Positions 27,827-37,931 of a stretch of 64,000 nucleotides of DNA are shown in pieces. The position numbers and the translations under genes were made by a program. The notes beneath the pieces are model-generated. The model was not told where the DNA came from and did not search any database. It worked only from the letters and a program-made list of their open reading frames with translations. The stretch is taken from the NCBI GenBank assembly GCA_964543475.1, contig CAZIYJ010000012.1, positions 25,951-89,950 on the forward strand, written 5' to 3'. Source of the DNA: an uncultured Bdellovibrionales bacterium (GTDB lineage: Bacteria; Bdellovibrionota; Bdellovibrionia; Bdellovibrionales; JAMPXM01). The number at the start of each line of letters is the position of its first letter. The first letter of the stretch is position 1.

Positions 27827-28831
27827 ATGCTAAAAGACATCGCCCGCAAACTACATGCAGCACGCTCGATCATCCTCACTACTCACCGTCACTGCGATGG
27901 CGATGGCTTGGGCGCACAGATCGCACTCTTTCACGCGCTTAAAAAAGCCGGCAAGAAAGTCCGCGTTCTTAACGTCGACGACACTCCCAAAAAATATTCG
28001 TTCTTAGATACTTCGATCGTTCAAGCTTATGAAGGAGCGCACGACGCAATCACTGATGCCGATCTTGCGATCGTCTTCGATACTAACGATCACCGTTTAC
28101 TCGAGCCTCTTTTTGGCGACTTAAGAAAGCGCGACGTCGAAGTTTTGTTTATCGATCACCATCCGATTTTGAAAAAAGGTCCTGAACCAACAAAAGGTTC
28201 ATGGATTGACGCAAGCGCCGCAAGCACCGGCGAAATGGCGTTTCATTTAGTAAACGAACTCGGAATTAAACTCGACGCAAAGATCGCCCGCGCAATTTAC
28301 ACAGCAATTGTTTTCGATACGCAGCTCTTTAGGTTCGTTCGCAGCTCTCCGCAAACGCATTTGATCACGGCCGAATTGTTAAAGTATGACATTAAGGCTG
28401 AGGAGATACATCGCGGACTTTTCTCGAATTACTCTCCGCAAAAGATGGCCTTGCTTGCTACAGCTTTGAATCAAATCGAATACTTTAGTGACGGCAAGAT
28501 TGCGTTCTTGAAATTGAAGGCCCAGGACTTTAAGAACTTAGGCCTAGAGTCTGATGCCTCGCGCGACCTGATCGATTTTATCATGAACATTGAAACTCTC
28601 GAATGCGCCATCATCTTACGAGAAGATGCTCCAGAAACTTTTAAATTGAGTTTGAGGAGTAAGGGCCGTTTTGAGATCTCGCAAGTTGCCGAACGCTTAG
28701 GCGGCGGTGGCCACCCATTTTCTGCAGGAGCGACTTTGCTAGGACCCTATGATAAGGTCAAAGCAGATGTCTTAAAACTCTTAGAGGAATCGTTGGGTGG
28801 AGCCCGCTCCCCCGGTTATGAGTCAGCCTAA
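27827..28831 (+). CDS. nrnA: DHH/DHHA1 phosphoesterase (NrnA-like oligoribonuclease/pAp phosphatase)
   Basis: Motifs HRHCDGDGLGA, VFDTND, FIDHHP and C-terminal GGGGHPFSAGA. Confidence 0.8.
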   Translation: MLKDIARKLHAARSIILTTHRHCDGDGLGAQIALFHALKKAGKKVRVLNVDDTPKKYSFLDTSIVQAYEGAHDAITDADLAIVFDTNDHRLLEPLFGDLRKRDVEVLFIDHHPILKKGPEPTKGSWIDASAASTGEMAFHLVNELGIKLDAKIARAIYTAIVFDTQLFRFVRSSPQTHLITAELLKYDIKAEEIHRGLFSNYSPQKMALLATALNQIEYFSDGKIAFLKLKAQDFKNLGLESDASRDLIDFIMNIETLECAIILREDAPETFKLSLRSKGRFEISQVAERLGGGGHPFSAGATLLGPYDKVKADVLKLLEESLGGARSPGYESA

Positions 28832-29066
28832 AAACAAAAAAGATATTGTCTGTCTCTGTAACAACGTCGATCGCACGACGATTGAAGATGCTATTCGCAA
28901 CGGCGCAGACACTCTCAACAAAATCTTTGACCGCACAACTGCGGGAGTTGGTCCTTGCGGTGGCTCGTGTCGCCGCAAGCTCGGCCCCATGCTCGATTCT
29001 TATCTAACTTGCGGGGCTTTCCCTGTTCCGCAGCCGAAAAATCAGAACAAGAAAAAGCGCGCCTAA
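28818..29066 (+). CDS. bfd: BFD-like [2Fe-2S]-binding domain protein
   Basis: ATG 28818 overlaps the nrnA 3' end. Contains IVCLCNNV...GVGPCGGSCRRKL, giving two Cys pairs as in bacterioferritin-associated ferredoxin-like domains. Confidence 0.7.
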   Translation: MSQPKNKKDIVCLCNNVDRTTIEDAIRNGADTLNKIFDRTTAGVGPCGGSCRRKLGPMLDSYLTCGAFPVPQPKNQNKKKRA

Positions 29067-29068
29067 GC

Positions 29069-29509
29069 CTAGTCTTCGGTTTCAAAAATTTGGTCTATAC
29101 CAAACTCGTCGCCATAAACCTTTTTAAGCATCACAAGAGTCGCAAGCGTCGGATTCGAATCAACTTCCTCTAATCGTTGATAGCTATAGAGGTTATTGAG
29201 CGACAACTTCTCTTGAATCTGTTTTTGAGTGTAGCCATGCCTGAGTCGTAAATTTCTAATATTCACAGCCAAAGCAACTTTAGGATCGACAGGGATTGCT
29301 ATCACATTAGAAGGCTTTTTCTTAAAATCTTTTGGCGGCGGGAAGATAATCTTCGAGCTCTCGGGCTCCGACAAAAATAGATTCAGAGCTTCCCTCAAAT
29401 TCACTTCAAGCTTCTTTCTCGAGCTCGCCTGGCTAACACAACCCTTGATCTCAATACACTCAGCCCAAAAACCCGAGCCTTCTTTGTGGACTTTGAAGTG
29501 ATATTTCAT
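29069..29509 (-). CDS. hicB: HicB-family antitoxin with C-terminal XRE-type HTH
   Basis: N-terminus MKYHFKVHKEGSGFWAECIEIKGCVSQ (HicB fold). C-terminus NIRNLRLRHGYTQKQIQEKL (HTH). Overlaps hicA by 4 nt. Confidence 0.8.
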   Translation of the reverse strand: MKYHFKVHKEGSGFWAECIEIKGCVSQASSRKKLEVNLREALNLFLSEPESSKIIFPPPKDFKKKPSNVIAIPVDPKVALAVNIRNLRLRHGYTQKQIQEKLSLNNLYSYQRLEEVDSNPTLATLVMLKKVYGDEFGIDQIFETED

Positions 29510-29700
29510 TTCCGCCCCCTCAGTCGCTTAATAAGCTTGTGCTCTAGACCCGCCTTAAGCTCTTTATGCATCGGTATCGTTTCCCTGAGATCGCCTTTGC
29601 CCATGATCACATGCGACCCATTTTGCCTTAAAGCGAGCCAACCATTTTTTTCATAGAGCTTCTTCATTGCTCTCCCACTCATCGGCACTGGCAACTCCAT
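29506..29700 (-). CDS. hicA: HicA-family mRNA interferase toxin
   Basis: About 60 aa. SGRAMKKLYEKNGW...GSHVIM is the YcfA/HicA signature. ATG 29682 is an alternative start. Confidence 0.8.
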   Translation of the reverse strand: MELPVPMSGRAMKKLYEKNGWLALRQNGSHVIMGKGDLRETIPMHKELKAGLEHKLIKRLRGRK

Positions 29701-29703
29701 TAT

Positions 29704-29729
29704 AGTATACCAATTATAGTTGGTATACT
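29704..29729. promoter_or_regulatory. Perfect 10-bp inverted repeat, putative hicAB operator/promoter
   Basis: AGTATACCAA (29704-29713), TTATAG, TTGGTATACT (29720-29729), lying 4 nt upstream of the hicA ATG. The minus strand contains TATAAT within the spacer and arm. Confidence 0.5.
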
Positions 29730-29835
29730 GACTTTTAAATATTTATTTTTATCTGAGCGCAGAGGCTAATCTTAAATGCATAAGCAAATGCCGTACGAGC
29801 TCTACGACCCGCCAGAATGAATCTGAAGCCGCAAG

Positions 29836-30066
29836 ATGTCCGGGACAGTTAAAGAAATCGTTTGCCTGTGCGAAAACATCGATCGCTCCACTTTCGAAGT
29901 TCCTATTTTTAACGGTGCAGACTCACTCAACAGAATCTTCTATCGCACTACTTTGGCGTCGGGACCGGTGCCGGTCCTTTTCGCCGCAAACAAAAACCAG
30001 GAGGAGTGTTCGAATTGCCTGCGATTTGCAAAAAGTGCCGAAATGGCGTGTACTTCTTTCCGCTAA
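29836..30066 (+). pseudogene. Degenerate second copy of the bfd-like gene (second Cys pair lost)
   Basis: VKEIVCLCENIDRSTFEVPIFNGADSLNRIFYRTTLASGP aligns with KKDIVCLCNNVDRTTIEDAIRNGADTLNKIFDRTTAGVGP of the 28818 gene. By hand, 25 of 40 positions are identical. GPCGGSC is replaced by GPVPVLF, and the tail shows an internal deletion. Confidence 0.55.
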
Positions 30067-30146: not shown

Positions 30147-30389
30147 ATGCTTTCTACTAAAACTTTAATCAGCTTAGCCTGTATTCTTTCAAACAAAGGT
30201 GATCTAAACACAAATTCTTTGGAGGCGCAGCTCACAAGCGAAGAGCGCACGAAACTTTCCAAAGTTATCGAGGCAGGCGCGTGTCTACCACCTGATGTAG
30301 ACATACTGATAGAAAAAACAAAAATTCGAATTCAAAGTGGTGAAATAAATAATCCACAAGGATCAACTAATCCGACGAGGGAATGCTGA
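30147..30389 (+). CDS. Small (80 aa) protein with hydrophobic N-terminus and C-terminal Cys; candidate precursor/signal peptide
   Basis: AGGGG lies 5 nt before ATG 30147. The TGA stop at 30387-30389 is 1 nt before the next ATG. Cys at residues 12, 46 and 80, the last residue. No family recognised. Confidence 0.5.
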   Translation: MLSTKTLISLACILSNKGDLNTNSLEAQLTSEERTKLSKVIEAGACLPPDVDILIEKTKIRIQSGEINNPQGSTNPTREC

Positions 30390-30390
30390 A

Positions 30391-31869
30391 ATGAAGTTTG
30401 CGATTGCTGGTATCGTTCTGATTTCAGCAATGTTCTTAATTTTCAACAAAGGAACATCTGCCCAAGTGGAGCAAGCAACTGAGACCTTAAAAGTTAGAAT
30501 CACTGGCACCACGGCCATACCAGACTCTGCGAAGATCGAGTCTGCGGGCGACTGGTATTATGCCGATCATATTTCCAGTGGCTTAGTTGCCTATGAAAAT
30601 GAACAACGCAAATTCGCTCCTCTGTACGCGAGCGATTGGAATGTTTCCGCTGATGGCTCCCATGTTTTCAAACTTCGACCTAATATCAAATTTAGCGATG
30701 GAACTCCAATAACTACGAAGGACATCGCTTGGACAATAAAACGTCTGTTAATTTTAAAAAGCTCGACTCATTTTCCACTTTGGGAATACGTAGTCGGCTG
30801 CGAGAGTCTCAAAACGCTAAATGATGATTGCAGTGGCTTGATCTATTCCAATAGCGAAATTCGTATCAAACTTAAAACAATTAATGATTCATTTTTTCTT
30901 CAGCTAGCTTCACCAGAAACTGCAATATGGTCGGCGGATGATATGGACTCCACGACATGCAAAATTGCTCCAACAAAGTTTTCTGGCCCATACTCAGTAG
31001 CGACCTTAACTTCAGAATCTGCGACATTAGTAAGAAATGAAAACTCGCCGATTTCTCAGAAGTTCAAAAATTCACCTCGATCAATCATATTGAAAGCGAT
31101 ACCATTAAAGGCAATAGATGAATCTCTTGTAGATCGAACTATCGATCTCGCAGTTCGCTCGTACAAACCGTACCAGACAGTCAACTGGGCGAGTCATGGA
31201 CTAAGAGTGCAAAGTACCACGCCCTCTTCGATTATCTACCTACAGGGTACTGGGAATGCCGCTCAGGTTGGACAGGACTTTGTCGAGGCCCTTTGGAGAC
31301 TTAATTCAGATACCGTCATCAGCCCAGCCGAGACATTCTTGCCTTTTTCGAAAACCACTTCAATTTCCAAAGACGAATTTCTTCAGTCGCTTCCACCTTC
31401 GACGTCAAAGACCATAAGATTAATAGGTCCCGAGGGTTTTTTCAGCGATGGCTTGATCGATTTAATCAAATCGGCCGGATTATCTGTTCAAGCTGATCTG
31501 CAGTTCACTTTTGTTCCATCCAAAGAATGGTTCGCAGCTTTCGAAGATCCTAAAACAAAAGAAAAATTTGATTTCATCTTGAGTAGTTACGCAGCCTCTG
31601 AACGTTATCCCGCAGTCCAACTCCGATACATCACTCATCCGTTAGTGAAACCTCCTATCGATCTGAAACTTGCGGAGTCTCCGACGATAACTGCGGATAA
31701 CAGTGAAATTTTAAGGGACTACGAGAAATGGCTGCTTCGTAGCCAAGTTGCAATCCCTCTTTTTTTTAATGTTACGCAGTTCATCTTTAGAGAATCGCTG
31801 GATCTGGGCAACCAATCGCTTACCGATGCAGAAATAGAGCTTTGGCGAATACAGGAAAGTTCTCGATGA
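30391..31869 (+). CDS. Periplasmic solute-binding protein, family 5 (peptide/nickel type), orphan
   Basis: Signal peptide ending TSAQ. SBP_bac_5-like N-lobe: WNVSADGSHVFKLRPNIKFSDGTPITTKDIAWTIKRLL. No permease or ATPase genes adjacent. Confidence 0.7.
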   Translation: MKFAIAGIVLISAMFLIFNKGTSAQVEQATETLKVRITGTTAIPDSAKIESAGDWYYADHISSGLVAYENEQRKFAPLYASDWNVSADGSHVFKLRPNIKFSDGTPITTKDIAWTIKRLLILKSSTHFPLWEYVVGCESLKTLNDDCSGLIYSNSEIRIKLKTINDSFFLQLASPETAIWSADDMDSTTCKIAPTKFSGPYSVATLTSESATLVRNENSPISQKFKNSPRSIILKAIPLKAIDESLVDRTIDLAVRSYKPYQTVNWASHGLRVQSTTPSSIIYLQGTGNAAQVGQDFVEALWRLNSDTVISPAETFLPFSKTTSISKDEFLQSLPPSTSKTIRLIGPEGFFSDGLIDLIKSAGLSVQADLQFTFVPSKEWFAAFEDPKTKEKFDFILSSYAASERYPAVQLRYITHPLVKPPIDLKLAESPTITADNSEILRDYEKWLLRSQVAIPLFFNVTQFIFRESLDLGNQSLTDAEIELWRIQESSR

Positions 31870-32792
31870 ACGAGGCAATAGATTTTAGAACCACACAAGA
31901 CTGTCTCGTAGCAGATTTTCTTCGACTACAATTACCGCTCGCTGAATCTCAACTTCAGATTGGAACACTTTCCTATTCACTCTTTTCTACAGAAGGAATT
32001 GGTGGCCCTGCCCACGGTCGAGATCCTTTACGAAAATTAGCCCTAATTAAGTGCATTGCAGAACATTTTGAGCGGCAAGCAATGCAAGAGTACTTTTCCA
32101 AGTGTTTCCAAACTCCTAATACCTTTCGCAACAGCAATGGATGGGCTGCGCATTTCGACTTGGCTGCGGCGATGGCTGCGAGCAGAAATGAATTACTGGA
32201 ACGACATCTTTTGCTTAAATCCTTTTTAAAATTTGGATGGGATGGCTTTTGTCTCAAGCACAGTTTTTCAATCGACGGACTCGAAATAAAACTTCTCACC
32301 TCAAGATTTGTCACTGAATCACGCATAAGCGGGATTGCTATTACTAAAGGACAGTCGCAAAACGGTGTTTCCTTTGGTTATTGCAACGGCGAAAAAGGCC
32401 GACTCGGAAGTCTCGAATTTTGGAAGCCAGCAATTTTTGAATCTATCGATAAACTTTTTGTTCTTGGTAACAATCGAATGCAAGTTGCCGAGAATGCTTC
32501 GTGGATTGAAAAAGGCATTCAACACTATTTAACCGAGCCGCTTTCAGTTTGCTTAAGCGACAACAGCTCGATATTGACTCCTGAACTGAATTACTGCACT
32601 GAAGTTTTCAACCTAAAATCCCGCCTGAACTTAAAAAGTCAATTTTGGGCAGCCCGAACTACTGCGAACAACGCAGTCCCATTGTTCGATACTGGGTGCT
32701 TGTCATCCGACGGCATTAGCTTTGTTAAGAGCGCCCTTGAAAACAATGGTATCGACGCCTACCACCTTCCCCAAAGACATCCAATCTTATGA
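31866..32792 (+). CDS. Short YcaO-like family protein (tentative)
   Basis: ATGA start/stop overlap with the SBP gene. ALIKCIAEHFER aligns with the YcaO A-x2-S-A-x2-E-x2-E-R motif. SNGWAAH...SRNELLERH aligns with the second G-x-A-x-G/H...E-x2-E-R motif. The C-terminus is ...LPQRHPIL. Confidence 0.5.
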   Translation: MNEAIDFRTTQDCLVADFLRLQLPLAESQLQIGTLSYSLFSTEGIGGPAHGRDPLRKLALIKCIAEHFERQAMQEYFSKCFQTPNTFRNSNGWAAHFDLAAAMAASRNELLERHLLLKSFLKFGWDGFCLKHSFSIDGLEIKLLTSRFVTESRISGIAITKGQSQNGVSFGYCNGEKGRLGSLEFWKPAIFESIDKLFVLGNNRMQVAENASWIEKGIQHYLTEPLSVCLSDNSSILTPELNYCTEVFNLKSRLNLKSQFWAARTTANNAVPLFDTGCLSSDGISFVKSALENNGIDAYHLPQRHPIL

Positions 32793-34099
32793 TAAGCCAA
32801 AGGTTTAAAGTATTTCTTTGTGCGATTTTTTTGGCAATCGCATTTACTTGGTCAAGTCGATTGATCCAAGAGTCTTCTCGAGCGAAATTTACTTCGATCA
32901 TGTGTGAATCCGTTGCAAATTACCTAGAAACTGGAAGCTTAAGGCCGGCCTACGAAGTCATGAGCTTCAGCACTTCGCGCATGTATCCGGGCAGTTGCGT
33001 AACGATTGCAGATCAAGGTCGCAAGTTCTCCCCTGCATGTATCGATACGGTTAAAAGTTATGAGACTCATAGCTGCTTGGTAGCTGGTAACAAAGGGGTC
33101 AGAGCAGAAGCTCACTATCCCATTTCACGGTTTTTCAGCATGAACTTCATTCTTATAGCAGCGACTATTTTCTCAATATCGCTCATGCTGATGACTGCTT
33201 TATCAAAATTCGCTGCGGCCATCCGCAAAGAAATGGATCAATCGGTTGCTAGGCTTTTCGAGAATCAAACACAGCCAGCAAGCTTAAGTGATCGGATATT
33301 AAGAACAGTGGGCGCATCGAATAAAATTCAAGCAAATACACAAAACTTAGAGCGGTCGATCTCGGCCTTCAAACTCAAACTGAAGCGAGAAGCTGAGCTT
33401 CGCGCCATTCAGGATGAAATTAGCGAGCGAAATAATAATTATATTTCGAAGGCAGTTCAAATTCGTCATGATATGGCTGCACCAATTGGAGCTCTTATTT
33501 CATTGAAGCCAAAATTACAAACCGACTTTGCGGCAACCCAGATGATGAATGAATCTATTCGCAGGTTAAAACTGATGATGGACGATCTCTCAACAGTGAC
33601 CCGTGAGACATTTTTTCTTCGTCCTGAATTAATTCAAGCTGTTGTCGACGAAGTGGTCTCGCATTTGTCTCCTCAGATAGATAGCAGCCGGACTAAAATT
33701 ATTGTCCAATCGCAGAGGCACGACATCATTGCTGCAATCGATGCCGAGAAAATGAAACGTCTGCTGACGAACCTAATCATCAACGCAATAGAGGCGTCAG
33801 CAAAAGTAATAATCATTAAAGTAGATTCAAAATCTGATCTAGTTCAGATCGACTTGATCGATAATGGAACAGGAGTTCCCGCAGAAATAAGACACGCTCT
33901 CTTTAAAAAAGGTTCCAGTTACGGAAAGCCTGCTGGAAATGGGCTAGGTCTATACTATGCGAAGGAGACATTGCGAGCGTGGCACGGTGACGTCGAGATA
34001 GAACACTTAACAGTTGGAACGAAGCTTCGAATTCGATTGCCGACTCTGTCGCTCGACCCTGAATTCAGTCAGTCCGCGGACCACTCATATCAACTTTAA
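32789..34099 (+). CDS. Sensor histidine kinase (two TM helices, Cys-rich periplasmic domain), orphan
   Basis: ATGA overlap with the upstream gene. H-box IRHDMAAPIGAL, N-box LTNLIINAIEAS, G1 DNGTGVP, G2 GNGLGLYYAKE. Four Cys lie between the two TM helices. No response regulator adjacent. Confidence 0.85.
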   Translation: MISQRFKVFLCAIFLAIAFTWSSRLIQESSRAKFTSIMCESVANYLETGSLRPAYEVMSFSTSRMYPGSCVTIADQGRKFSPACIDTVKSYETHSCLVAGNKGVRAEAHYPISRFFSMNFILIAATIFSISLMLMTALSKFAAAIRKEMDQSVARLFENQTQPASLSDRILRTVGASNKIQANTQNLERSISAFKLKLKREAELRAIQDEISERNNNYISKAVQIRHDMAAPIGALISLKPKLQTDFAATQMMNESIRRLKLMMDDLSTVTRETFFLRPELIQAVVDEVVSHLSPQIDSSRTKIIVQSQRHDIIAAIDAEKMKRLLTNLIINAIEASAKVIIIKVDSKSDLVQIDLIDNGTGVPAEIRHALFKKGSSYGKPAGNGLGLYYAKETLRAWHGDVEIEHLTVGTKLRIRLPTLSLDPEFSQSADHSYQL

Positions 34100-34807: not shown

Positions 34808-35023
34808 TGTGAGCCCCGACTGTTGGTTGAATAGCTATGCCTTTGTCGGTGAAAGATTGCAATGCCGACGCTGATCTGACTTTTGAATTTATAGGATTTT
34901 AGTCGAGTTTCTTGCCATTAGAGAGCGAGTTTACAGTCTAGTTTTGTGCTTTACGGCAAACCTTTGCGCTCTAGTTATGCAGTTTTCCAAGGGATTTTCC
35001 GATTTTAAAGTGTGGAGGACTCT

Positions 35024-36454
35024 ATGAGCAACTTAGCTAAAACACAACAGGATGAAATCCTGGTACCGCAAATGCCAAAACTGATTGTAGTTCGACAAGA
35101 TCGAGTCACTGTTGACGATCTTCAGACTATCATCCGAACTAAAGATGGTGATTTCAACGTCATCGACTTCAGCCCGTTCGGCTTAGCTGTGTTTACGAAA
35201 GAAGATTTGACCGATAAATCTTATATCGCGTCTTTTGTGGTGCAGAATGTTGAGATCGAACAAATTGAAATCAAAAAAGTTCGCTCAGAAAAATATTTCC
35301 ACAACGAGCACGACGGCTACAAAACTGCTTTTGCAATTACCGGCAATCCAATTTCGATGGAGCGAGCGGTAGCAGTCCGAAAAACAACTGAAGTTCTTTC
35401 TGAACACTTAGCTCAGGTTTCCGCTCCACAAGTCCCTGACGCTTTTAAACTTGTTTCTTATGAAATCACAAACTGGTTAGCGAAGTTACAATCTCTTGTA
35501 AATTCACTTGAGAAATCTTCGTTCGAGCATTCGCGAACGTATCTCGAACCATATGAAGCAGTTGTCACTGAAATGGTGGCTCATTACATCGAGAGCAACA
35601 TCTATCCACTCTATTCAAAAATCCAACACATTGTTGAGGGGCTCGACTCTCAAACTGTAAAAAGCTCGTTCGTTTTCTTTAGAGAACAAGTTGGGCCATA
35701 TCTTTACCAATCAGCATATGCAAACCGCGCATACACTAAACCACGCGGATATGCAGGCGACTTTGAGATGATGAAGAGCGTCTATAATAACGAACAGCGC
35801 GGCCAGAGTCTATTCGGTCGCTGCGTTGAACGTTATTTCGTAAATGTTCCAGAGTCTCAAGCGGTCCGCAATAGAGGCAGATACTTACAAGGCAAGATCA
35901 TCAACTTTATTCAAAGCAACCCGGGTCGCCCTCATCGCTTTTTGTCACTCGCCTGCGGCCCAGCAATGGAAATTCAATACTTGATACAAGAAAATCCCGA
36001 GCTTCTTACTGAAGATGTTGAGATCTATTTCGTAGATCAGGACACCGAGGCTTTGAAAGAATGTCAAAAACGCATTGAGCTACTCGGACGACAATTTAAA
36101 GTAAAAGCTAAGTTCAGATTTCACAATTGGGCAGTAAAGAACATAATCGAAAATGGTCTACAAGTCCCTGAACTCAGCATGATCTATACAGCAGGCCTGT
36201 TTGACTACTTATCCGATGCTGTAGCGTCTTACGCAGCTCAACGATTATTTACGAATGTACTTCCAGGTGGAGAGCTTATCATTGGCAACTTCGATATTTC
36301 GGCTCCGAATCGCTTTGGAATGTCACTCGTAACCGATTGGCACTTAATTTACCGCACGCCGAGAGATCTAGAACGTTTATTTGGGAAACTCGGCAATTTC
36401 ACAGTAGAAAAAGAAAGTCTCGGCATCAACTTATTTGCGTCACTGAAGAAGTAG
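35024..36454 (+). CDS. PilZ-like N-terminal domain fused to a class I SAM-dependent methyltransferase
   Basis: GGAGGA lies 4 nt before ATG 35024. The N-terminus carries RQDR...VIDFSPFGLAV, a DxSxxG PilZ-like element. The C-terminus carries FLSLACGPAMEI (motif I), YFVDQD and IYTAGLFDYLSD. Confidence 0.55.
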   Translation: MSNLAKTQQDEILVPQMPKLIVVRQDRVTVDDLQTIIRTKDGDFNVIDFSPFGLAVFTKEDLTDKSYIASFVVQNVEIEQIEIKKVRSEKYFHNEHDGYKTAFAITGNPISMERAVAVRKTTEVLSEHLAQVSAPQVPDAFKLVSYEITNWLAKLQSLVNSLEKSSFEHSRTYLEPYEAVVTEMVAHYIESNIYPLYSKIQHIVEGLDSQTVKSSFVFFREQVGPYLYQSAYANRAYTKPRGYAGDFEMMKSVYNNEQRGQSLFGRCVERYFVNVPESQAVRNRGRYLQGKIINFIQSNPGRPHRFLSLACGPAMEIQYLIQENPELLTEDVEIYFVDQDTEALKECQKRIELLGRQFKVKAKFRFHNWAVKNIIENGLQVPELSMIYTAGLFDYLSDAVASYAAQRLFTNVLPGGELIIGNFDISAPNRFGMSLVTDWHLIYRTPRDLERLFGKLGNFTVEKESLGINLFASLKK

Positions 36455-36470
36455 GATACTTAACAAGATT

Positions 36471-37931
36471 ATGATTCCCAAAAAGCTACTCGACAATCAA
36501 GTCGAAGAAACTTTGCTAAAGGAAACGCGCGAAACATTCGCGACTGGTTTCCTATTCGCACCGTTTCTGTATCTTGGCTTTTGGGCAGTAGATTGCTTCT
36601 ATGCTCCCGATCAAATGTGGAAGTTCCTTGGGCTTCGAGTTACACACGGTCTCTTTGTTGCAGGATTGTATTTCTACTTCAAACAGCCGAGATCACTGCG
36701 ACAATATCAAATAGCGGGAGCTAGCTGGGCCGCAATCGCGAGTAACTTGATTACTATCATGATACTTATGACTTCAGGCCCTGCCTCAATTTATTATGCC
36801 GGCCTAAATCTAGTTGCTCTACTAGCGATCTTCTTCATACCGTATAGACCTAAAGTTCAATGGTTTGCCCTTGCCACAATCTTTATCCCTTACTTAATTG
36901 GATGCGGCCTTCAAGTTACTAGAGACAATTTTACTACCTACGTAGCCAACTCCGCATTTGTATTCGGGACCGTATTAATTGGGGTCGTCATCAAGAAAGT
37001 TCAATTCCGCACTCGAATTAAAGAAGTAGAGGCGCAGCTTGCCCTTGCAAGCGAAGTTGCAGATCGCGAAGAGGTTATTCAAGTAAAGACCACGGAAAAT
37101 GTAAAGCTCTCGAGACTTAGCAACCAATTTAGCCCACAGGTTGTAGAAGCAATTCGCACTGGCGCTCTTGAGCTTTCAGTAAGCGCAAAGAGAAGTTTAA
37201 TATCGACTATTTTTATCGACATCGTAAATTCGACTGAGCGAGTTGTCCGAGTCGACAATGCAAAAGTAAACAAAGTAATTGGAATGTTTTTAGAAGATAC
37301 GGCTCGTATTCTCCTTAAGTACGATATCACTATCGACAAATTCTTAGGCGATGGAATTCTAGCTTTTGCCAACGATCCCGTGCGCCACTCCGATTTCGTT
37401 GAGCGAACAGTTCGAGCTGCAATGGAAATTCGGGAACGGATAAGTAGCCGGCAAGAAGAATATGAAAATCTTTGGATGAACAAGTTAGAAATTCGCATTG
37501 GGATTGCTCATGGTTACGCAAATGTGGGCTTCTACGGAAACGAAAAGCTTTACAAATGCTATACAGCCATCGGACCAGTAGTGAATTTGGCTTGTCGTCT
37601 GTCGGCGGCTGCTGATCCTAATGAAATCCTGATTACTCACGACGTGTTCGAAAATATGCCTACTTCGCAGTTTGTGACAGCATCAAAAGGTAAACTGACC
37701 CTCAAGGGGTTCGAGCAGGATTTGATCAAATGCTATTCGATTGATGGTTACGCCGGAAATAATAAGGCAGTCGACAAGTTTGAAGACGACTTGGAGTGTT
37801 CGAATTGCCATCAAGGTATCTTCTATCTGGCTTCGAACGACAAAGGCCAGTTTGTATTTAAATGCCGGCATTGCGGCTTTGTTCAAGAGCAAGAAGAAGC
37901 CTCAGCTTCCCTTATAAAGCGCGCAAGCTAA
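36471..37931 (+). CDS. Membrane-bound class III adenylate/guanylate cyclase with C-terminal zinc ribbon
   Basis: About 6 N-terminal TM helices. Cyclase core: TIFIDIVNSTE, KFLGDGILAF, IRIGIAHGYANVGFYG, YTAIGPVVNLACRL. The tail is CSNCHQG...CRHCG. Confidence 0.85.
   Translation: MIPKKLLDNQVEETLLKETRETFATGFLFAPFLYLGFWAVDCFYAPDQMWKFLGLRVTHGLFVAGLYFYFKQPRSLRQYQIAGASWAAIASNLITIMILMTSGPASIYYAGLNLVALLAIFFIPYRPKVQWFALATIFIPYLIGCGLQVTRDNFTTYVANSAFVFGTVLIGVVIKKVQFRTRIKEVEAQLALASEVADREEVIQVKTTENVKLSRLSNQFSPQVVEAIRTGALELSVSAKRSLISTIFIDIVNSTERVVRVDNAKVNKVIGMFLEDTARILLKYDITIDKFLGDGILAFANDPVRHSDFVERTVRAAMEIRERISSRQEEYENLWMNKLEIRIGIAHGYANVGFYGNEKLYKCYTAIGPVVNLACRLSAAADPNEILITHDVFENMPTSQFVTASKGKLTLKGFEQDLIKCYSIDGYAGNNKAVDKFEDDLECSNCHQGIFYLASNDKGQFVFKCRHCGFVQEQEEASASLIKRAS

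Follow-up and report, generated by a model that had tools for sequence, protein, structure and literature searches.

What does a YcaO protein do where none of the usual companions of its family is encoded beside it? This question is raised by a 64-kb window of Bdellovibrionales DNA (the whole stretch analyzed here), in which an open reading frame (ORF) on the + strand at 31866-32792 encodes a cytoplasmic protein of 308 amino acids without a signal peptide. The first-pass annotation had read it by eye as a minimal YcaO-like protein that lacks every known class of partner. YcaO enzymes are known from antibiotic and toxin pathways for peptides that are made on the ribosome and modified after translation (RiPPs) and from the modification of McrA and uL16, and most of the superfamily is, to our knowledge, uncharacterized. 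Profile, fold and synteny comparisons indicate that the protein belongs to an undescribed, widespread and minimal YcaO clade that is built into a sensor cassette. The main point had been missed by the annotation: the YcaO gene is strictly linked to genes for a periplasmic solute-binding protein (SBP) and a histidine kinase, and mostly also to a gene for a sigma-54 response regulator.

The ORF and the three segments on which the annotation relied were found in place (GRDPLRKLALIKCIAEHFERQ, residues 51-71; NSNGWAAHFDLAAAMAASRNELLERH, residues 89-114; LPQRHPIL, residues 301-308). The ORF overlaps both of its neighbors: its ATG shares letters with the stop codon of the SBP gene upstream (ATGA), and its own stop codon does so with the ATG of the kinase gene downstream. 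An in-frame TTG at 31842 offers an alternative start. As at least two ExxER motifs occur in 3 of the 62 long ORFs of the window, a motif recognized by eye is in itself weak evidence. Searches with the single protein also gave only weak evidence of a YcaO identity. Against Pfam YcaO (PF02624/IPR003776), whose gathering cut-off of 25.7 bits is an operational threshold and not a biological feature, the protein scored 14.3 bits (E 0.026) in a local match to residues 87-118 only, and a scan of NCBIfam gave no relevant match above cut-off. Single-sequence and 8-sequence profile searches of the PDB sequences likewise returned nothing relevant.

Its relatives placed the protein more clearly. YcaO (PF02624) was the top Pfam family for all 8 close homologues retrieved in an indexed search (best E 2.4e-6), and among 60 diverse relatives, 17-39% identical to the window protein in a 60-sequence alignment, TIGR03604 (SagD) was matched by 29 and TIGR00702 by 4. 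Searched against PDB sequences, the 60-sequence profile reached 7 different YcaO proteins among 11 matches, all aligned at the noted motifs: MJ1094, which was the best match, M. kandleri YcaO, MusD, E. coli YcaO, TruD, LynD, and McbD. An exhaustive profile search of 1.84 billion representatives recovered at least 213 clusters (at 50% identity) with E <= 1e-3, 101 of them with E <= 1e-30, and members of the YcaO clade have 282-375 amino acids. Nine of 10 weak profile matches that were checked (282-352 amino acids) pass the Pfam YcaO cut-off at 27-71 bits; one weak match, P0143, was rejected as a low-complexity false positive. A profile scan of genome contigs gave a match in one Bdellovibrionaceae metagenome-assembled genome (MAG) only, and tblastn against plasmids gave none.

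The predicted fold agrees with these relationships. An AlphaFold2 model built on the 60-sequence alignment had a mean predicted local distance difference test score (pLDDT) of 94.3 and a predicted TM-score (pTM) of 0.91, and showed no extra domain beyond YcaO. The top 32 Foldseek matches in the PDB were all YcaO domains (E 3e-8 to 3e-4, probability 0.99-1.00), a ranking that a shallower AlphaFold model reproduced. TM-scores to solved YcaOs were only about 0.45-0.55 (TMq 0.34-0.55 over the 32 matches) at identities of about 11%, which counts against the assignment; as modeled, the protein is a strongly diverged, trimmed version of the YcaO fold. Homology is nevertheless firm despite the sub-threshold score, because the families of the homologues, the reach of the profile and the fold agree, and on this combination of profiles and models membership of the YcaO superfamily is close to certain. 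The YcaO-like identity proposed by the annotation is thereby borne out by both family profile and predicted fold: the protein taken alone stays below the Pfam threshold, but its predicted fold is that of YcaO and not an unrelated one. Its placement at the short end of the family was equally apt, with 308 residues against 377-396 in solved minimal YcaOs; a survey of standalone YcaOs dropped all proteins shorter than 350 amino acids. As the protein falls short of the Pfam and NCBIfam cut-offs and of part of the ATP motif, we therefore filed it as a divergent clade outside the characterized subclasses, set apart from the azoline-forming, TfuA-dependent, bottromycin-type, and E. coli-type YcaOs.

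The conserved positions of the clade fall into three motifs and a tail. Motif 1 (residues 51-70; 32016-32075, + strand) reads G51 ... K62 ... E66-x2-E69-R70, and hhalign, which laid residues 41-79 of the window protein on residues 45-88 of E. coli YcaO, equates these positions with G60, S71, E75, E78, and R79, respectively. Motif 2 (residues 90-114; 32133-32207, + strand) reads S90-N-G-W-A94 ... E109-x2-E112-R113-H114 and was located by the local Pfam match and by the PDB profile alignments to MJ1094 and MusD. A gap-free register of 24 residues, read by eye, pairs its S90-N-G-W-A...E109-L-L-E112-R113 with S180-N-G-M-S...E199-V-F-E202-R203 of E. coli YcaO and puts A94, F97, A101, and A105 at the positions of S184, N187, E191, and Q195. 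Motif 3 (residues 167-192; 32364-32441, + strand), recognized from column conservation, reads G167-x3-G171-Y ... W186 ... A189-x2-E192 and probably matches E. coli G275 ... R286-x3-E290. Its register is drawn from weak alignments, weaker than those of motifs 1 and 2. E192 falls in a unit that resembles the third unit of solved YcaOs (G-x-G ... A-x2-A-x2-E in the PDB alignments), but these alignments pair the first motif of the query with the third unit of the target, which supports an internal repeat and not the pairing of E192 with E290.

Conservation across the 60 relatives centers on acidic and basic residues. G51, E69, R113, G167, G171, and P272 are kept in all 60 sequences, and E66, R70, S90, N91, G92, W93, A94, E109, E112, H114, W186, E192, and P306 in 53-59. 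The equivalents of the five Mg/ATP-site Glu residues and both Arg residues are near-invariant, since E66 (59/60), E69, R70 (58/60), E109, E112, R113, and E192 (59/60) are all found in 58-60 of the sequences; the two Glu pairs singled out by the annotation, E66/E69 and E109/E112, are thus conserved among these relatives. In E. coli YcaO, we take E75/E78 and E199/E202/R203 to coordinate Mg2+ and ATP, and the E202A substitution impairs that enzyme (PMC13063428). S90 occupies the position of McbD Thr148, as follows from the profile coordinates of the McbD match (McbD 148-179 on profile 130-161), and a Ser or Thr at this position is typical of RiPP YcaOs (PMC6395948). With this pattern of conservation, the YcaO protein is probably catalytically active.

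The YcaO domain also resembles three tandem units (residues 1-89, 90-127, and 167-201), each ending in G-x-G ... A-x2-A-x2-E-x2-(ER). The first of these (window 31866-32130) resembles the fold of a double-stranded RNA-binding domain (dsRBD); the family profile matches the dsRBD of RNA helicase A at E 0.0096, and many dsRBDs occur among the lower Foldseek matches.

The HP element that the annotation had picked out at the extreme carboxyl terminus belongs to a family-wide tail of exact length, P302-Q-R-H-P306-I-L308-COOH in the window protein (32769-32789, + strand). Fifty-eight of the 60 relatives end in P-[IVFTA]-[LIVA]-COOH, exactly two residues past the conserved Pro (P306, kept in 58/60), with I-P-E-R-H-P-I-L-COOH as the consensus, and the AlphaFold2 model predicts the tail to be ordered (pLDDT about 95). 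Catalysis by BalhD and McbD needs a carboxyl-terminal Pro or free carboxylate (PMC6395948), and PxPxP is described as the canonical tail of azoline-forming YcaOs (PMC12338566). While P302-x3-P306-I-L-COOH differs from PxPxP in sequence, the conservation of its exact length argues for the same kind of role.

The periplasmic and membrane proteins that the annotation had seen beside the YcaO gene were confirmed, but they form a conserved cassette and are not incidental company. On the + strand of the window, the small ORF (30147-30389) is followed by the SBP_bac_5 gene (30391-31869), the YcaO gene, and the histidine kinase gene (32789-34099). About 20 independent related loci, taken from metagenomes and from a single Bdellovibrionaceae MAG, were compared, and all of them have the same flanking genes on the same strand around the YcaO gene, mostly with overlapping stops and starts. 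The SBP gene is immediately upstream wherever the contig extends, with the exception of loci L026 and L027, and the kinase gene is immediately downstream in all 19 loci that extend far enough. Likewise, all 12 loci that extend far enough have the small ORF upstream of the SBP gene, and the small ORF is itself preceded in 11 related loci by a gene for an NtrC-type sigma-54 response regulator. The window and L011 are without an adjacent sigma-54 regulator, and no homologue of it was found anywhere in the 64-kb window.

The absence of partners was also confirmed: in the window's organism and in 8 related loci, the genes called out to about 8-10 kb from the YcaO gene had no Pfam family for an E1/ThiF, TfuA, PqqD or RiPP recognition element (RRE), nitroreductase, protease, or ABC exporter. 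YcaOs without partners already exist, however, and the trait is hence not unprecedented.

A few relatives carry the same partners in other arrangements. In L027 (4345-7703), the YcaO gene of P0157 is followed by an ORF of 50 amino acids with a signal peptide that ends in ..GSGGTCR, an SBP_bac_5 gene, and a gene for a kinase-like membrane protein, while in L026 (3900-6313) that of P0156 is followed by an ORF of 99 amino acids with a signal peptide that ends in ..EPSCYGNGIN and then by SBP_bac_5. The YcaOs of both loci are more canonical, being Pfam-positive and having ERD instead of ERH. A third protein, the Pfam-positive short YcaO P0151, is encoded between an SBP and a membrane protein with a kinase-like N-terminus. 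Because the same partners recur in different gene orders, a functional link between YcaO, the small Cys-containing protein and the SBP is well supported. L027 adjoins mer genes (MerR, MerB) and genes for an arsenate-reductase-like protein (LMWPc) and a MIP channel.

In five loci, the genes that come after the cassette encode a conserved protein with a pair of sigma-70 region-4 domains and type IV secretion components of the TrbC/VirB4 type (L003 12162-16424, L004 11669-15927, L006 9956-11625, L007 8259-9062, and L014 10578-14873), and L004 additionally has resolvase, beta-lactamase, and APH genes nearby. This gene content suggests that in those five genomes a conjugative element carries the cassette, which may regulate that element. 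Sigma-54-type -24/-12 elements (TGGCAC-N5-TTGC, at most 1 mismatch) were seen just upstream of the regulator gene in L004 (4767) and L006 (3698) and just downstream of the kinase gene in L003 (10953) and L019 (6663). None was found near the window's cassette; a candidate there, TGGCGC-N4-TTGC at about 30090, was rejected for its wrong spacing, and window-wide counts equaled chance. No Rfam family or DNA repeat was detected around the window's operon, and promoter-like and terminator-like sites around it were no commoner than in shuffled sequence.

The first gene of the cassette (30147-30389, + strand) encodes a protein of 80 amino acids, identified by synteny and alignment as both a candidate substrate of the YcaO protein and a candidate periplasmic ligand. 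The annotation had named it as a possible substrate and called it adjacent; the operon in fact places it two genes upstream of YcaO, but it stands as the best candidate. Its N-terminus is hydrophobic and signal-like (MLSTKTLISLACILSNKG), residues 47-48 are a conserved L-P, and the protein ends in Cys80 (..NPTREC-COOH). No Pfam family matches it. An alignment of 12 such proteins showed what they have in common: a hydrophobic N-terminus, the L-P motif (L-P-E-N in most), a Gly, and a Cys near the carboxyl terminus. P48 is invariant, and conservation reaches at least 90% at L47, G65, P76, and the terminal Cys. The conserved Cys lies 1-6 residues from the end, often after small residues (PTREC, PTDGCF, SGTNCHGKA, QGTCRLY).

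The small proteins of L011, L022, L026, and L027 have textbook Sec signal peptides with clear n-, h- and c-regions and cleavage sites of the A-x-A type. In the subgroup to which the window belongs, the segment MLSTKTLISLACILSNKG is conserved to an unusual degree, is short, and lacks a good cleavage site; by comparison with these relatives, export of the window's own small protein is probable. A reading as a lipoprotein (L-A-C12) was considered unlikely, since its Cys comes as early as 11 residues from the start, the would-be hydrophobic region contains a Lys, and neither L011 nor L022 keeps Cys12. Whether the small protein is the substrate of the YcaO protein is, on the features of its sequence, an evenly balanced matter.

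The two remaining members of the cassette both look intact in the window. The SBP (30391-31869, + strand) is a periplasmic protein of family 5 with 492 amino acids and an N-terminal signal peptide (Pfam SBP_bac_5, E 7.5e-19), and has weak NCBIfam matches to NikA, OppA, and CntA. Family-5 SBPs bind peptides, Ni-chelates, opine metallophores, and methanobactin. Because no ABC permease or ATPase genes were found near its gene, the SBP is probably the sensing partner of the kinase. The sensor histidine kinase (32789-34099, + strand; 436 amino acids; Pfam HATPase_c, 1.4e-15) was laid out by transmembrane prediction and alignment as a first transmembrane segment, a periplasmic domain of about 100 amino acids with 4 Cys residues, a second transmembrane segment, a coiled coil, an H-box (IRHDMAAP), and HATPase_c. 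The four periplasmic Cys residues are conserved in the Bdellovibrio-like subgroup of kinases. The long kinases of the loci that have the regulator gene (553-583 amino acids; for example L003 8969-10690) are hybrids with a receiver-like domain at the carboxyl terminus (DD...D...T...KP), which is lacking in those of the window, L011, and L012; the contig of L012 ends too early upstream to show whether a sigma-54 regulator is present.

How might these parts work together? YcaO enzymes activate backbone amides using ATP and Mg. In the mechanism that we propose, the cytoplasmic YcaO protein would bind ATP/Mg through E66, E69, R70, E109, E112, R113, and E192, its own C-terminal tail with the carboxylate being folded into that site, and would activate a backbone amide of the 80-residue protein beside the conserved Cys near its carboxyl terminus. 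The likeliest product would be a thiazoline, an assignment that we make only tentatively. The modified small protein would then be exported through Sec by means of its N-terminal signal-like segment, the periplasmic family-5 SBP would bind it, either as such or loaded with a metal or another cue, and the complex of SBP and ligand would set the activity of the kinase. By analogy with other ligands of this SBP family, a metal- or redox-loaded peptide is conceivable here. In many relatives, that signaling system would feed a sigma-54 regulator beside conjugation (type IV secretion) genes.

Each of these steps has an analogue, as precedents exist in the bufferins for a RiPP with a Sec signal, in the partner-free YcaOs, and in the orphan SBPs that activate neighboring kinases. 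From the gene content and conservation described above, we would put the chances that the YcaO protein modifies the small protein before export, and that the SBP-kinase pair senses the product, at about even. That the modified, Sec-exported peptide is a dedicated periplasmic ligand or co-ligand of the SBP-dependent kinase, responsive for instance to a metal or to redox state, and thus a RiPP that acts as a built-in cofactor of two-component signaling and not as an antibiotic or metallophore, is a more speculative proposal, which we consider possible but doubtful.

Several features of the cassette are awkward for this proposal. The published ATP-binding motif of E. coli residues 184-203, S-x6-7-E-x3-Q-x3-E-xx-ER as quoted in PMC7774982, is not matched in full, and only its E-xx-ER half is kept. 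The claim of the annotation that the ATP-binding motifs are present thus stands for the two E-x2-E-R motifs, which are in register, but not for S184, E191, and Q195 of the second, which are replaced. At the position of S184, 58 of the 60 sequences have Ala, N187 is replaced by Phe, and E191 and Q195 fall in variable columns, while the position of E. coli R286 is P188 here and Pro, His, Ser, or Gln in relatives, with no conserved Arg. Judging from these replacements, ATP binding could be altered or lost; the alignment suggests that the Mg-binding carboxylates are under strong selection while the nucleotide contacts differ. The small protein has a single conserved Cys and no core rich in Cys, Ser, and Thr, its N-terminal hydrophobic stretch in the window's subgroup is short for a Sec or lipoprotein signal, and in the window's family the SBP gene separates it from the YcaO gene. 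The cassette has no gene for a protease or an exporter. Finally, a periplasmic peptide of about 60 amino acids cannot leave a Gram-negative cell, which makes the logic of self-sensing puzzling.

The YcaO-like protein could also be a cytoplasmic accessory of the two-component system that binds or covalently modifies the kinase or, where present, the regulator in an ATP-dependent manner, much as the YcaOs of E. coli and of methanogens act on the folded proteins uL16 and McrA, with the small protein as an unmodified periplasmic co-sensor. Such a role would fit the overlap (ATGA) that the YcaO gene shows with the kinase gene in nearly all loci, the invariant core of SBP, YcaO, and kinase, the position of the small ORF away from the YcaO gene in the window's family, and the best structural matches, which come from M. 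kandleri and E. coli YcaOs that modify proteins; E. coli YcaO recognizes a folded protein without an RRE (PMC13063428). Yet gene overlap is common in operons and by itself no proof of a complex, no conserved candidate site was identified in the kinase, and the YcaO genes of L027 and L026 have the small ORF directly behind them. Moreover, besides the L-P, the near-terminal Cys, a classic YcaO nucleophile, is the only feature of the small protein found across all subgroups. An accessory of this kind is therefore rather unlikely in our judgment.

We consider it improbable, too, that the protein has become a pseudoenzyme descended from a YcaO, which would keep the fold and an acidic pocket, perhaps for a metal or another nucleotide, and would serve the cassette as a scaffold or ligand sensor without activating amides any longer. 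The replacements at S184 (Ala), N187 (Phe), E191/Q195 (variable), and R286 (not Arg), a length 70-90 residues below that of the smallest solved YcaOs, and the sub-threshold scores against curated models could all be signs of such a loss. They are set against seven Glu and Arg positions retained in 58-60 of 60 relatives at 17-39% identity, against S90, N91, G92, and the exact-length tail, whose retention is expected of an active site under selection, and against related members in the same synteny that pass the YcaO model. The substrate might also be the SBP precursor, modified before export, or another exported protein in place of the 80-residue protein. The SBP gene is always present and translationally coupled to the YcaO gene, but no conserved Cys or obvious site was seen in the SBP, although no search was aimed at one, and a small ORF with a terminal Cys, which directly follows YcaO in L026 and L027, explains the association more simply; such a substrate is very improbable. 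Least credible of all is a chance match of motifs in an unrelated protein. The single-sequence Pfam match (E 0.026), the ExxER pairs in 3 of 62 window ORFs, and the empty single-sequence PDB search would allow for it, whereas the profiles, the transitive matches and the fold lead to YcaO alone, which refutes a chance match as far as computation can.

Around the cassette, the window differs from the related loci. Immediately upstream, a gene pair for a HicA toxin (64 amino acids) and a HicB-like antitoxin (146 amino acids) lies on the - strand at 29069-29700, in the place where relatives carry the sigma-54 regulator. A possible operator of hicA, a palindrome with a 12-bp stem (TAGTATACCAATTATAGTTGGTATACTG, 29703-29730), is located just upstream of that gene. 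A degenerate BFD-like [2Fe-2S] ORF without the second Cys pair (29836-30066, + strand) separates hicAB from the small ORF; it is 64% identical over 39 amino acids to an intact BFD-like gene on the other side of hicAB (28797-29066, + strand). From this similarity, it is probably a pseudogene remnant that marks a rearrangement or insertion; no repeat was detected at the DNA level for the pair of BFD-like ORFs. Downstream, beyond a convergent pdxJ gene, are a gene for a protein of 480 amino acids (35012-36454, + strand) with no Pfam family on record, the sequence of which suggests a methyltransferase-like core, and a gene for a membrane adenylate/guanylate cyclase (MASE8-like and Guanylate_cyc; 36471-37931, + strand). 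Neither of these two genes is conserved beside the cassette in other loci.

The clade would be the smallest YcaO scaffold that keeps the catalytic Glu/Arg set, which would make it useful for defining the minimal catalytic unit, and the first YcaO to be linked with signal transduction. It escapes the current models of Pfam and NCBIfam, and would also escape surveys that drop proteins of less than 350 amino acids. If the small protein is indeed the substrate, it would be the first precursor with a Sec signal peptide to be modified by a YcaO, and the cell would make the ligand of its own sensor. Where the cassette lies beside type IV secretion genes, it may control DNA transfer in those relatives. 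As 4 kb of DNA hold the genes for all four proposed players (substrate, enzyme, receptor, and kinase), the hypothesis is directly testable. A literature search found neither a YcaO linked to an SBP, histidine kinase or sigma-54 regulator nor a YcaO precursor with a Sec signal peptide; the main YcaO reviews lay outside that search, and an earlier mention is possible.

Among known systems, the structures that match best belong to the M. kandleri and M. jannaschii YcaOs, which carry out McrA thioamidation (PDB 6ci7, 6cib, 6pe3), and to E. coli YcaO, which carries out the thioamidation of uL16 at Met82 (PDB 4q84-4q86, PMC13063428). These enzymes have the same Glu pairs and Arg at the Mg/ATP site, and they likewise work without an RRE or E1 partner, and their substrate is a protein and not a short peptide. 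The window protein has 70-280 residues fewer than these enzymes and lacks a TPR domain, the equivalents of S184, N187, E191, Q195, and R286 are replaced, ERH takes the place of ERD, and the tail is P-x-x-COOH. Its genomic context is a sensor cassette and not ribosome or methanogenesis genes, and no sulfur-delivery partner is evident. With the azoline-forming cyclodehydratases (thiazole/oxazole-modified microcins; SagD TIGR03604, BalhD, McbD, LynD, TruD), the clade shares the NCBIfam model matched most often (TIGR03604, 29/60) and a Ser/Thr at the McbD Thr148 position (S90). Its conserved carboxyl terminus with Pro recalls PxPxP and the catalytic free carboxylate, and in the candidate substrate the Cys often follows small residues. 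Unlike those systems, it has no E1-like, Ocin-ThiF or RRE partner, flavin mononucleotide-dependent dehydrogenase, leader protease, or ABC exporter. Only one Cys is conserved in the candidate substrate, in place of a core rich in Cys, Ser, and Thr; the tail reads P-x3-P-[IV]-[LIV] and not PxPxP, and scores are far below the model cut-offs. It also differs from the thioamide-forming YcaO-TfuA pairs, as TfuA was not among the Pfam families of the neighbors in any locus examined.

Standalone YcaO RiPP pathways, such as those of bottromycin (BotC/BotCD) and streptamidine (bioRxiv 10.1101/2020.05.04.076059), also have a YcaO without a recognition partner near a short precursor. Those are actinobacterial clusters for secreted metabolites with tailoring enzymes, however, whereas the only companions here are an SBP and two-component proteins, and the candidate precursor carries a signal peptide. 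Bufferins, which are periplasmic RiPP metallophores modified by MNIOs (oxidative enzymes that depend on multinuclear non-heme iron; PMC11626156), resemble the proposed product in another respect: their precursor of 60-100 amino acids has a Sec signal, the Cys heterocycle is made in the cytoplasm, and the product stays periplasmic. The bufferin enzyme is, however, an MNIO with a DUF2063 partner and not a YcaO, the operon has no dedicated SBP or histidine kinase, and the precursor families are unrelated to the small protein. The sensory half of the cassette has its closest likeness in the SBP-dependent sensors LuxP-LuxQ, TorT-TorS, CBP-ChiS, and AgtB-AgtS, in which an orphan SBP is encoded beside a membrane kinase without transporter genes (PMC11113362, PMC12704726). 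None of these systems is known to encode a YcaO or a dedicated small secreted protein; in the cassette described here, by contrast, the ligand may be genetically encoded and enzymatically modified.

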